Shown in pieces: positions 56,068-58,927 of a DNA stretch of 64,000 bases. The translations under genes and the position numbers were made by a program. The notes under the pieces were generated by a model, which was given only the letters and a program-made list of their open reading frames with translations, did not search any database and was not told where the DNA came from. The DNA lies in NCBI GenBank assembly GCA_963703285.1, contig OY969807.1:384001-448000 (forward strand), read 5' to 3'. Origin of the DNA: an uncultured Nitrososphaerota archaeon (lineage in GTDB: Archaea > Thermoproteota > Nitrososphaeria > Nitrososphaerales > Gagatemarchaeaceae). Within the stretch, counting starts at the first letter, position 1. Every line of letters starts with the position of its first letter.

Positions 56068-56418
56068 TTGCCCAAGAACATCTTCGTCTCGTTCCTGCGC
56101 CCGCCCGTCGGCAGCATCTTCTTCGTCGAGGGATTGAGGGTGGCGGGCAGCCTCGTGAAGAGCGATGACCACAACAAGGTGGTCGTCGCGTTCCTGGGAA
56201 AGGGCGCGAGGTGCGCCCTCCGCGGCGTGGAGAGGTCGTACGCCGTCAAGTTCCAGGACCTTTTCCCAGCCGAAGCTGGCAAGAGGTTCTACGTCGAGGA
56301 GGAGTCTCTGAAGGAGGAAGGCATCGACCCAGGTCAGCTGGCGGATGACTTCGCCGTCGCCTCGAGGAGGGCACTGCAGGAGATGATGCTGAAGGCGGAC
56401 CAGTGCATAAGCTTCTAG
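56068..56418 (+). CDS. dsrF: DsrF/TusC-like protein
   Basis: PP.GS....EGLR.A, YVEEESL.E.G, AD..I.F. Confidence 0.8.
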   Translation: MPKNIFVSFLRPPVGSIFFVEGLRVAGSLVKSDDHNKVVVAFLGKGARCALRGVERSYAVKFQDLFPAEAGKRFYVEEESLKEEGIDPGQLADDFAVASRRALQEMMLKADQCISF

Positions 56419-56571
56419 AGTCGAGCCACAACTTCAGAGACCTGTTCCGGCTGATTCTCAACCCTCTCACCACCGAACTGCTTCATGACTTGAACTGCCG
56501 TCTAGACGAATGAAACAGACGTCCTTGCTGGGGGGTTATATCCGTCCTTGGTCTTACTCTAGGAACAAAAC

Positions 56572-57207
56572 GTGCAAGCGTCGAGGGAGAACCCCGGGAC
56601 GTTCGATTGTAGCATCTGTGGGGCGAAGTTCCTTCGTTCACGTCAGCTATGCGGTCACAGAGTCGGTAAACACAGCGGTCGTGTCCGTGCCAAGAATTCG
56701 TCGATTGTCCTAGATGAACTCTCGGAGATTCAAATCGGGTACCTTGCGACATTCCTAGATGGTGAGGGAGGAGTCCAGATCACTCGTTCGGAGAGGAAAG
56801 ACCGCGCATACAAAATCGCTCTCCACCCTACTGTCTACTTCACGAACACCTTTAGGCCCTCAATCGACGCATTGCACAACTGGATTAGATCAGGCACTCA
56901 GGTTGTCTCACGCACCCGTGATGGCCGCAAGGACACTCACGTCCTTCACGTGACTGGTATGAGAAACATCTTGCTCTTGCTGGAGGTGCTCGCTCCTTAC
57001 TTAATCATCAAATCTCGACAGGCAAGCGTGATGATGGAGTTTTGTCACAGCCGACTAGGCCACTACAGGGGCCAGGATCGACATTACACAGAAAGGGAGT
57101 TAGAACTATATAGCTGCCTGCATCGACTGAACGAAAGAGGTGTAACAAAGAACGCCAACGCACGGAAGTCTTACCAAGGCGGGGAAATGCGATACCGCAC
57201 CCTTTAG
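56572..57207 (+). CDS. Free-standing single-motif LAGLIDADG endonuclease with N-terminal C2H2-like zinc finger
   Basis: FDCSICGAKF.....LCGH...KH; GYLATFLDGEG; F.NT; PYLIIK..QA; TTATAT box at ~56536; lower GC than flanks. Confidence 0.88.
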   Translation: MQASRENPGTFDCSICGAKFLRSRQLCGHRVGKHSGRVRAKNSSIVLDELSEIQIGYLATFLDGEGGVQITRSERKDRAYKIALHPTVYFTNTFRPSIDALHNWIRSGTQVVSRTRDGRKDTHVLHVTGMRNILLLLEVLAPYLIIKSRQASVMMEFCHSRLGHYRGQDRHYTERELELYSCLHRLNERGVTKNANARKSYQGGEMRYRTL

Positions 57208-57338
57208 TCCGAGGTCAGACTCCAAAGATAGAAGGCAAGCCTAGGAAGGGAGCAATCCCCAAGGTAAGGAACCGCAAGACCTACATCAAGAGATTCACAC
57301 TCAAGCGAAAGCCAGGCCAGAATTGGCAGCGCACCTAG
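57152..57338 (+). CDS. rps30e: Ribosomal protein S30e, two exons (57152-57186 + 57206-57338), apparent ACG start
   Basis: Spliced product (M)[54 protein letters not shown] (55 aa) has the S30e signature HGSLxKAGKVRxQTPK; GAGGTG SD at 57137-57142. Confidence 0.93.
57187..57205 (+). other. 19-nt archaeal bulge-helix-bulge (BHB) intron in rps30e mRNA
   Basis: GGC|GGGG|AA^A|UGCG-AUAC-CGCA|CCCU|UU^A|GUC: 4-bp central helix, two 3-nt bulges, flanking helices; cutting after nt 2 of each bulge restores K-V-R in frame. Confidence 0.9.
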
Positions 57339-58927
57339 ATCGGGAGTTCACGGACCCCGAGAGGGCGGCGGTAAAGGACGTAGCATCCCAGGTCCTCCAG
57401 GGGAGGATACGGGGGAGGCCCCAGCTCGAGCGCGCGAAGCGGGAGGCCGCCGTCAACCACCACCTCTCGATGTACCTGTCCAACTCCTCGATCCTCCTCG
57501 CCCTCCCTGAAGCCGAGCGCTCCAGGTGGAGCGAGCTCCTCCGCATCCACCCCAGGAGGAGCGCCTCGGGGATAATCATCGTGACCGTCTTCTCCGCTCC
57601 CTTCGGCTGCCCTCACGGCACGTGCGTCTTCTGCCCCGGCGGGCCGCGGCTCGGCACCCCGCAGAGCTACATGCCGGATGGCCCGAGCCAGAGGATAGCG
57701 AAGGGCCTGAACTACGACCCCTATCTGCAGACCAGGCGCTCCCTGAAGAAGTACGCCGAGAAGGGGCACGAGACATCGAAGGCAGAGGCGATCATCGAGG
57801 GGGGAACGTTCATCGCCCTGCCGCAGGACTACCAGCTCCCCTTCGTCAAGAGCGTCTACGAGGGCCTCAACGGCGTCAGGTCCACCTCGCTCGAGGAGGC
57901 ACAGCGCAAGAACGAGTCTGCCTCGAGCAGGTGCGTCGGCCTGACCGTAGAGTCGAAGCCTGACTGGTGCAGGAGGGAGCACATCGACCAGATGCTCTCA
58001 TACGGCGTAACCCGCCTCGAGATCGGCGTCCAGAGCCTCCACGACGGTCCCCTCAGGGCGAGCAACCGCGGCCACACCGTGCAGGACTCCGCGGACGCCT
58101 TCCAGGTCGCCAGGGACGCGGGCCTGAAGATATGCGCGCACATGATGCCCGGGCTCCCGGAGTCGAACCCGAGCGATGACCTCCAGGACATGAGACGGCT
58201 GTTCGATGACGAGGCGTTCCGACCGGACATGTCAAAGCTCTACCCGACCCTCGTCGTGAGGGAGACGGCGCTCGCCAGGCTGGCCGAGTCGGGGCTCTAC
58301 CGACCGTACGACCTCGAGGAGGTTGTCGACCTTCTCGCCGAGATGAAGAGGTACGTCCCGAGGTGGCACAGGATCATGAGGATAATGAGGGAGATACCCG
58401 AGAAGGACATACGCGCCGGCCCCGACGCCGGAAACCTGCGGGAGCTCGTACTTCGTCGGGTCGAGGAACTCGGCTTCAGGTGCAACTGCATCAGATGCAG
58501 GGAGGTCGCCCTGGCCACCCCGCTCGACGCAGGCCCATCCGACCCCCAGTTAGTGACAACGGAGTACTCTGCCTCGGGAGGGGTGGAGACGTTTGCGTCC
58601 TTCGAGTATCCGGAGACGGGCGCCGTAGCCGCTTTCATCAGGATGAGGTCGCCCTCCGACCTGGCGCACAGGACCGAGGTGGACGGGTCGTGCATCGTCC
58701 GGGAGCTCAAGGTCTACGGAAGGGTCGTCTCGGTCGGCGAGAGGAACCAGGACGCCTGGCAGCACAGGGGGCTTGGGAAGGCCCTCTTGGGAGAGATGGA
58801 GAAGGTGGCCCGTGAACGCTTCGGCGCCAAGCGCATTCTTGTGATGAGCGCCGTCGGGACGAGAAACTACTACAGGAAGTTCGGCTACGAGAGGTGCGGC
58901 CCGTACATGAGCAAGCCGCTTCGTTAA
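57323..58927 (+). CDS. elp3: Elp3 radical SAM/GNAT tRNA U34 carboxymethyltransferase
   Basis: R..SG, CPHG.C.FCPGG, PQSY, GGTF, E.KPD, RELKVYG, QH.G.G. Confidence 0.96.
   Translation: MAAHLDREFTDPERAAVKDVASQVLQGRIRGRPQLERAKREAAVNHHLSMYLSNSSILLALPEAERSRWSELLRIHPRRSASGIIIVTVFSAPFGCPHGTCVFCPGGPRLGTPQSYMPDGPSQRIAKGLNYDPYLQTRRSLKKYAEKGHETSKAEAIIEGGTFIALPQDYQLPFVKSVYEGLNGVRSTSLEEAQRKNESASSRCVGLTVESKPDWCRREHIDQMLSYGVTRLEIGVQSLHDGPLRASNRGHTVQDSADAFQVARDAGLKICAHMMPGLPESNPSDDLQDMRRLFDDEAFRPDMSKLYPTLVVRETALARLAESGLYRPYDLEEVVDLLAEMKRYVPRWHRIMRIMREIPEKDIRAGPDAGNLRELVLRRVEELGFRCNCIRCREVALATPLDAGPSDPQLVTTEYSASGGVETFASFEYPETGAVAAFIRMRSPSDLAHRTEVDGSCIVRELKVYGRVVSVGERNQDAWQHRGLGKALLGEMEKVARERFGAKRILVMSAVGTRNYYRKFGYERCGPYMSKPLR

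Follow-up and report, generated by a model that had tools for sequence, protein, structure and literature searches.

The ribosomal protein S30e gene in a lineage of Nitrososphaerales carries a predicted bulge-helix-bulge mRNA intron within a lysine codon

In the genome of an uncultured Nitrososphaerota archaeon (GCA_963703285.1), the gene for ribosomal protein S30e is found in two pieces, which lie in different frames and are separated by 19 nt. The locus belongs to the stretch of DNA analysed here, namely the 64,000 nt at positions 384,001-448,000 of the forward strand of contig OY969807.1, hereafter the window, along which the features of Table 1 are numbered unless another locus is named. 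The 19-nt insert, designated intron B, falls within the codon for Lys-12 and can be folded into a motif of the bulge-helix-bulge (BHB) type, i.e. the substrate of the archaeal tRNA-splicing endonuclease EndA. This candidate intron, its distribution and its surroundings are the subject of the present analysis.

Taken alone, the second exon matches the Pfam family Ribosomal_S30 (PF04758) over positions 12-58 of 58 with 21.5 bits (E = 2.7e-4), which falls below the gathering cut-off of 27 bits. Once the insert is removed in silico, the two exons come into a single frame encoding an S30e of 55 residues, and against a custom hidden Markov model built from 13 intron-less outgroup S30e sequences this spliced product scores 108.1 bits, versus 73.9 for exon 2 alone and 25.4 for the unspliced reading. 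The unspliced frame, read from the ACG found at the start position, meets a stop after 30 residues. Over the 41 codons of exon 2 compared across the family, the ratio of nonsynonymous to synonymous substitution rates (dN/dS) is 0.082 for intron-B genes, 0.069 for intron-A genes (the second intron described below) and 0.096 for intron-less genes; judging from these ratios, exon 2 is under purifying selection and the S30e gene is functional. A preliminary description of the window had already proposed this split gene, and the coordinates it gave for exons, insert, helices, bulges and hairpin are all exact, as is the premature stop it foresaw for the unspliced frame. A separate intact rps30e elsewhere, which it had named as evidence that would speak against the proposal, does not appear: no second PF04758 or S30e-like locus was found in the 2.25-Mb single-contig genome. 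Its claim of a full 55-residue S30e holds for the spliced frame but not for the beginning, which is ACG, a Thr codon; the missing start codon had been overlooked, and so had intron A in relatives and a LAGLIDADG gene upstream.

Within the motif, a 4-bp helix stands between two 3-nt bulges on opposite strands, in agreement with the canonical definition of the BHB (PMC4090602), and this arrangement is invariant in 32 homologous inserts; helices flank it on both sides, as in the strict hBHBh' form. From this definition and from the location of tRNA positions 34-35 in the BHB central helix (PMC4090602), cleavage is expected, for the present orientation, to follow the second base of each bulge, which gives predicted cut sites at 57186/57187 and 57205/57206. 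The preliminary description had applied the same rule, which is sustained by the in-frame product, differing at one of 55 residues from the protein of L004, an intron-less ortholog of the same genus (itself matching PF04758 over positions 2-58 with 46.4 bits), as well as by the loci L080, L082 and L083, where the 5' bulge is AAU and Lys-12 is restored only by a cut after the second bulge base. The central helix, the two 3-nt bulges and the inner hairpin are all present in the minimum-free-energy fold of 57170-57218 obtained with ViennaRNA (-13.5 kcal/mol), which draws the outer helix one register off. No other copy of the 32-nt BHB core occurs in the genome with up to seven mismatches allowed, and with E values up to 1 accepted no Rfam family matched within 56300-57500.

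Regarding its distribution, S30e was searched for with the Pfam profile first over 41 related genomes and then over all 97 available genomes of the same GTDB family. The first 41 genomes gave three types of match, i.e. full length, from profile position 6-7 and from position 11-12, the last being the type of the window. Over the family, S30e was matched in 74 of the 97 genomes, just 40 of the 74 lying above the Pfam cut-off, which agrees with the earlier suggestion that introns hide S30e from annotation. Five family genomes without a Pfam match were searched with exon 2, giving one match at a contig end, one weak match (E = 0.372) and nothing in the other three, and the absence of S30e matches there fits fragmented assemblies. 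A script could classify 73 of the 74 loci, L091 not being placeable: 13 have neither intron, 19 have intron B only, 28 have intron A only and 13 have both, so that at least one intron is present in 60. Intron B, with a length of 19-20 nt and at the exact site of the window, is found in 32 of the 73 loci (32 species-level genomes), and the Lys codon is always restored by its removal. In intron-less orthologs of the same genus the codons run uninterrupted and the insert is precisely absent. Outside the family, neither intron occurs in 14 loci representing 14 other families of the order, and the start codon of each is ATG or GTG.

The covariation of intron B was assessed over 11 pairs on a MAFFT alignment of the 32 sequences (28 distinct), which was not fitted to the structure. 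Standard pairs occupy 99.0% of the 308 pair cells, against 80.0 +/- 1.4% after shuffling (none of 500 shuffles reaching the observed value) and 31.5-57.1% when the 3' partners are slid by 1-3 columns, and a covariation score of 0.568 compares with 0.173 for the shuffles. Seven of the 11 pairs vary on both sides, over 59 cells. The outer helix is paired in 97.6% of cells and the inner helix of 4-5 bp in 100%, with double changes in all four of its pairs; bulge lengths and the 4-bp spacing are constant, the difference between 19 and 20 nt sitting in the inner hairpin or its loop. The 5' strand of the central helix consists of the wobble base of an Ala codon followed by the three bases of a Gly codon, and the pairs GU, AU, GC, UA and CG are met at column 12 (Ala wobble) and GC, CG, UG and AU at column 15 (Gly wobble). 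In other words, the bases of the intron track synonymous wobble changes in the opposing Ala and Gly codons. The preliminary description had read the insert as a BHB intron and had put forward, as a check, the presence of an insert at the same codon in relatives with compensatory changes; both find strong support in the 32 family loci, in which central helix and bulges are kept.

The S30e gene of the window is devoid of intron A, which is present in 41 of the 73 loci and sits between the first and second bases of codon 7. This intron is 31-32 nt long, except in L087 (L087:242-318, minus strand), where consecutive GTC/ATC triplets in the hairpin loop extend it to 46 nt. In the proposed structure, the central helix is formed by GGAG or GAAG with CUCC or CUUC, the 5' bulge is UCA, and an inner helix GCAG/CUGC runs on into a variable hairpin; since the outer helix amounts to one G-C pair, intron A is a relaxed form of the BHB. 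Over 40 of the 41 regions, L087 being excluded from the alignment, 96.4% of 532 cells are paired, compared with 89.1 +/- 0.6% after shuffling (0 of 500) and 26.5-50.7% with slid partners; double changes affect 7 of 14 pairs, and RNAalifold independently gives the same helices. Here too, where a Gly wobble base changes synonymously from G to A, the opposing intron base turns from C to U (27 rows GC, 11 rows AU). Application of the BHB cleavage rule yields a Leu codon 7 in 41 of 41 loci, as in intron-less family members. Beyond the family, at least 290 of a sample of 301 genomes of the phylum score above the Pfam cut-off; five low-scoring genomes were followed, of which four are merely divergent and one (G264) has an intron of its own. 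In this other family, both genomes available (L096/G264 and L117/G412) have a 31-nt BHB-like intron directly after codon 7, i.e. two bases from the site of intron A.

The enzymes that such introns would call for are encoded in the genome, as the preliminary description had presumed. The EndA domain (PF01974) is found at two loci, with 94.5 and 81.3 bits, and RtcB (PF01139) is present with 565.6 bits. The two EndA genes lie in the regions G000:C1:481885-482124 and 2143633-2143887 of the genome. For the first EndA paralog, chains of solved tRNA-splicing endonucleases match at E = 6.7e-41 and the Tyr/His/Lys catalytic residues are kept, as seen by eye; the second has a solved relative at E = 6e-23 and, also by eye, is without the His. 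Hetero-oligomeric forms of EndA are tied to a broad substrate range. The abstract of PMC5829648 points to the same property, and the sequences of the pair are consistent with a hetero-oligomeric, broad-specificity enzyme. With permissive intron settings, ARAGORN reports introns in 23 of the 36 tRNA predictions of the genome, which indicates that the splicing machinery is heavily used. Several of these tRNA introns are placed at odd positions, and at least one call, Cys GCA at 134587-134678 of the genome, looks like a misplaced intron, as a canonical 37/38 intron would give Arg GCG. The cbf5 gene (TruB_N; G000:C1:28829-29170, L097) is uninterrupted here and forms one open frame of 351 amino acids.

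The start of the gene is less straightforward. The S30e frame contains no ATG, GTG or TTG, and a TAA lies two codons upstream of the ACG. Among the 32 intron-A-less loci, codon 1 is ACG in 29, ATG in one, GTT in one and TCG in one, whereas the 41 intron-A loci begin with ATG (34) or TTG (7). In the 29 loci of ACG type the third base of codon 1 is always G, whereas Thr codon 3 uses all four ACN codons (ACG 8, ACA 12, ACC 8 and ACT 4 over the 32 intron-A-less loci). A motif resembling GGAGGT or AGGTG lies within 22 nt upstream of codon 1 in nearly all of these 32 loci, a few being weak, e.g. L005. No canonical start is present in 12 of the 13 intron-less genes, a set which is still under purifying selection. 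An upstream exon supplying the AUG, by means of a third intron that would perhaps carry the endonuclease gene, was considered and rejected. In L007, just 69 nt separate the stop of the DsrE-like gene from the ACG and include a promoter-like element, which leaves no room for an upstream exon; in L040, inspection by eye of the interval from the TATA-like element to codon 2 gave no ATG, GTG or TTG in any frame; and a search by hand revealed no BHB pairing through which an upstream exon could finish with AU or AUG. We conclude that the ACG-type S30e genes would be translated either with ACG itself as the initiation codon or with an AUG that arises in the RNA. We know of no established archaeal precedent for an ACG start, and a literature search on archaeal ACG start codons gave nothing relevant.

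Considering the above, the S30e pre-mRNA very probably carries, in its Lys-12 codon, a 19-nt BHB intron that is removed by EndA, the exons being joined by RtcB. The gene would be transcribed as a pre-mRNA including the insert, EndA would cleave each 3-nt bulge behind its second base, and joining by RtcB would bring the exons into the one frame of the 55-residue S30e; an unspliced RNA would yield a dead-end peptide of 30 residues. Several points weigh against this explanation. Cleavage, ligation and translation, apparently from ACG, are what we infer from the gene, the motif, its conservation and the enzymes, and with no canonical start codon the expression of S30e would need a second step that is likewise deduced. 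As a single sequence, the fold is not unusually stable (z = -0.90, 33 of 200 shuffles folding as well), and the outer helix has just 3 bp, one G-U pair included; the significance of the motif comes from the comparison with relatives rather than from thermodynamics. Yet the relatives are all metagenome-assembled genomes, and because their sequences are related the shuffle statistics overstate independence, a concern which the control with slid partners and the double changes answer in part.

Of the other explanations, the one that survives best, albeit improbable, is that EndA cuts the BHB and the exons are mostly left unjoined, so that the mRNA is destroyed or down-regulated and a minority is spliced. 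In Haloferax, EndA cleavage of a BHB in the 5' untranslated region of HVO_1309 has an effect on expression (PMC7714728), and the weak ACG start would suggest low expression; however, this is the sole S30e copy, it is under purifying selection and readable only after joining, and RtcB is present. It is more improbable still that the ribosome skips the hairpin by translational bypassing (hopping) and the RNA stays uncut. A short stable hairpin in a coding region and a premature stop in the zero frame would suit this mechanism, but there are no matching take-off and landing codons: AAA or an AAG-like triplet precedes the gap, whereas the last three bases ahead of exon 2 are variable (UUA, UAA, UGA, CGA, ACA, GGA and others). 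Besides, covariation keeps the exact geometry of an EndA substrate (two 3-nt bulges, 4 bp apart) and not merely a hairpin, and relatives have, 17 nt upstream, a second intron with this geometry. Finally, the view that the gene is a pseudogene in decay, or an artefact of assembly or sequencing, and that the 19 nt are an insertion killing a dispensable S30e, is hardly credible in spite of the lack of a canonical start codon, the abutting mobile homing-endonuclease gene and the absence of S30e from Euryarchaeota, which makes it dispensable in some archaea (PMC3082918), since the same insert of 19-20 nt recurs with compensatory changes in 32 species-level genomes, always restores the Lys codon and resides in the only S30e copy of the genome, with a dN/dS the same as that of intron-less genes. 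With splicing by EndA and RtcB retained as the explanation, the coupling of splicing to ribosome biogenesis that had been suggested earlier would be pure inference.

A strict BHB scan of the whole genome for further mRNA introns gave 6,526 matches and 11,293 hit-and-frame combinations, of which 130 passed the frame and stop filter; no convincing case was recognised among 40 of these 130 candidates, and the few of the 40 identifiable by eye correspond to natural C-termini or to places where adjacent genes meet. By codon score, the S30e intron itself came only 5,534th, and consequently the scan is insensitive and proves no absence.

Table 1. Features of the S30e locus in the window, with examples of intron A from other loci
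Feature	Position	Strand	Remarks
S30e gene, whole	57152-57338	+	two pieces in different frames
S30e exon 1	57152-57186	+	11 codons and first two bases of the Lys-12 codon
Intron B	57187-57205	+	19 nt, within the Lys-12 codon; predicted excision by EndA and joining by RtcB
S30e exon 2	57206-57338	+	third base of the Lys-12 codon, 43 codons, TAG stop at 57336-57338
BHB motif, whole	57178-57209	+	fold and covariation
BHB outer helix	GGC 57178-80 / GUC 57207-09	+	3 bp
BHB central helix	GGGG 57181-84 / CCCU 57200-03	+	4 bp
BHB bulges	AAA 57185-87 and UUA 57204-06	+	3 nt each, on opposite strands
BHB inner hairpin	UGCG-AUAC-CGCA 57188-99	+	4-bp inner helix
ACG	57152-57154	+	putative non-canonical initiation codon at the start position of S30e
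Shine-Dalgarno-like GAGGTG	57137-57142	+	9 nt upstream of the ACG
BRE/TATA-like element GAGTTAGAACTATATA	57097-57112	+	about 40 nt upstream of the S30e start position (BRE, B recognition element)
LAGLIDADG homing-endonuclease open reading frame	56572-57207	+	211 amino acids, single motif; directly upstream of S30e
DsrE/DsrF-like gene	56068-56418	+	upstream of S30e
elp3	57323-58927	+	Radical_SAM, Radical_SAM_C, ELP3_N and GNAT domains; 3' of S30e
Intron A, examples	L020:1452-1513; L030:1648-1709(-); L033:1006-1067(-)		absent from the window

Regarding the surroundings of the gene, elp3 follows S30e in most of the 3-kb loci of the same genus, and is also found 3' of S30e in several further families within the order, L009, L014, L015 and L018 being examples. 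If its first TTG is the start, elp3 overlaps the final 16 nt of S30e (57323-57338). The BRE/TATA-like element recurs, slightly varied and at the same distance, in many intron-A-less S30e loci, and presumably serves as a promoter, as the archaeal consensus would suggest.

The open reading frame directly upstream of S30e, whose 3' end overlaps the promoter-like element, exon 1 and intron B, is, by its sequence relatives, a LAGLIDADG homing endonuclease of the I-CreI/I-MsoI type. In a search of PDB sequences, residues 48-172 match I-MsoI (E = 8.1e-11 and 1.7e-4), followed by an rRNA-intron-encoded endonuclease (3e54, E = 0.003) and I-CvuI (E = 0.0089). The open reading frame also matches PHROG 5046 (E = 7.6e-15), whose label 'HNH endonuclease' conflicts with the solved relatives; neither Pfam nor NCBIfam gave a match for the LAGLIDADG core, and a C2H2-like zinc finger is weakly matched by Pfam at the N-terminus. 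Homologs adjoin S30e directly on its 5' side in 13 of the 32 loci that lack intron A, and the 41 intron-A loci show none, absence being less certain in the many loci that show about 250 nt upstream. Within the genus, the endonuclease is present in 7 of 7 loci with intron B only and in 0 of 8 intron-less loci. In relatives of the genus devoid of it, the distance from DsrE to the start of S30e is between 69 and about 140 nt; in the window, the endonuclease gene sits between DsrE and S30e.

In an Elp3 tree of 22 rows, L028 and L030 are sisters on short branches (support 100/99), whereas L028 has ACG, intron B and the endonuclease, and L030 has ATG, both introns and no endonuclease. The two differ in promoter type too, and in the second subclade of the genus all S30e states are mixed among close relatives. 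Such a contrast between sisters, together with this mixture, indicates that the 5' end of S30e is often exchanged or remodelled and points to allele replacement. A homing element would cause such an exchange, although tight linkage by itself might account for the association with the endonuclease too. A bolder proposal, which we hold to be rather doubtful, is that the 5' end of S30e is a battleground of selfish elements, where two BHB mini-introns are spread or erased in the DNA together with the neighbouring free-standing LAGLIDADG endonuclease, as an archaeal counterpart of 'collaborative homing', the allele linked to the endonuclease being expressed from a conserved ACG that is read as it stands or turned into AUG in the RNA. 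If this were true, one ribosomal protein would depend on tRNA-splicing enzymes as well as on non-AUG initiation.

The two-step scheme envisaged for S30e has an analogue in the processing of HAC1/XBP1, where IRE1 cuts paired stem-loops of the mRNA and a tRNA ligase or RtcB joins the ends, the removal of a short intron shifting the frame, a subject on which PMC13149111 touches. S30e would share with it the use of an endonuclease and tRNA ligase and the change of frame, but the enzyme would be EndA rather than the stress-regulated IRE1, and there is no evidence of regulation at S30e. Also comparable are the archaeal pre-tRNA and pre-rRNA introns, with the same BHB motif, size range and, as predicted, enzymes, tRNA introns measuring 11-129 nt with medians mostly of 12-25 nt (PMC4090602). 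In S30e, however, the motif lies in an mRNA, where codons restrict the exon strand of the central helix and their synonymous changes are matched by the intron strand. Another parallel is the cbf5 pre-mRNA of Crenarchaeota (Desulfurococcales and Sulfolobales), for which PMC2738675 describes a short BHB-like intron in the coding frame, recognised by EndA and subject to lineage-specific losses. These traits would be common to both genes; yet cbf5 encodes a pseudouridine synthase of Crenarchaeota, whereas S30e is a ribosomal protein of a Nitrososphaerales lineage, has up to two introns in its first 36 coding bases and shows intron presence and absence that flip between close relatives. In Haloferax volcanii, according to PMC7714728, the BHB intron of the HVO_1309 5' untranslated region was confirmed in vivo and in vitro as an mRNA substrate of the splicing endonuclease. 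The intron of S30e would be another such mRNA substrate; rather than an untranslated leader, it interrupts a codon, which would make splicing obligatory for any S30e product. As for the endonuclease, in F-CphI/psbA of cyanophage and mobE/I-TevIII of T4 a free-standing endonuclease works jointly with an intron that has none, and is mobilised along with its flanking DNA (PMC6083498, PMC2790892). At S30e also, the endonuclease gene is beside, not inside, the intron-bearing gene, but those systems are group I introns of phages, whereas BHB mini-introns in an archaeal chromosome are concerned here.

No report of an S30e/eS30 intron in archaea was found in the open-access literature, supplements excluded. 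A 2020 text explicitly names cbf5 as the sole archaeal coding-region intron (PMC7714728), and in the reference list of a 2025 paper mRNA introns are backed by cbf5 papers only (PMC12397907). S30e would then be the second archaeal gene with a BHB intron in its coding region, from a different major lineage and with introns at two sites and covariation of unusual clarity. This has a practical side, as gene callers and marker-based completeness estimates will report S30e missing, since just 40 of the 74 family genomes with a match reach the Pfam cut-off. In addition, a substrate of about 50 nt, together with natural intron-plus and intron-minus alleles within one genus, offers a test system for the action of EndA and RtcB on messengers. 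Likewise, the ACG start makes non-AUG initiation in archaea a testable question, and the adjoining homing endonuclease does the same for the movement of BHB introns.

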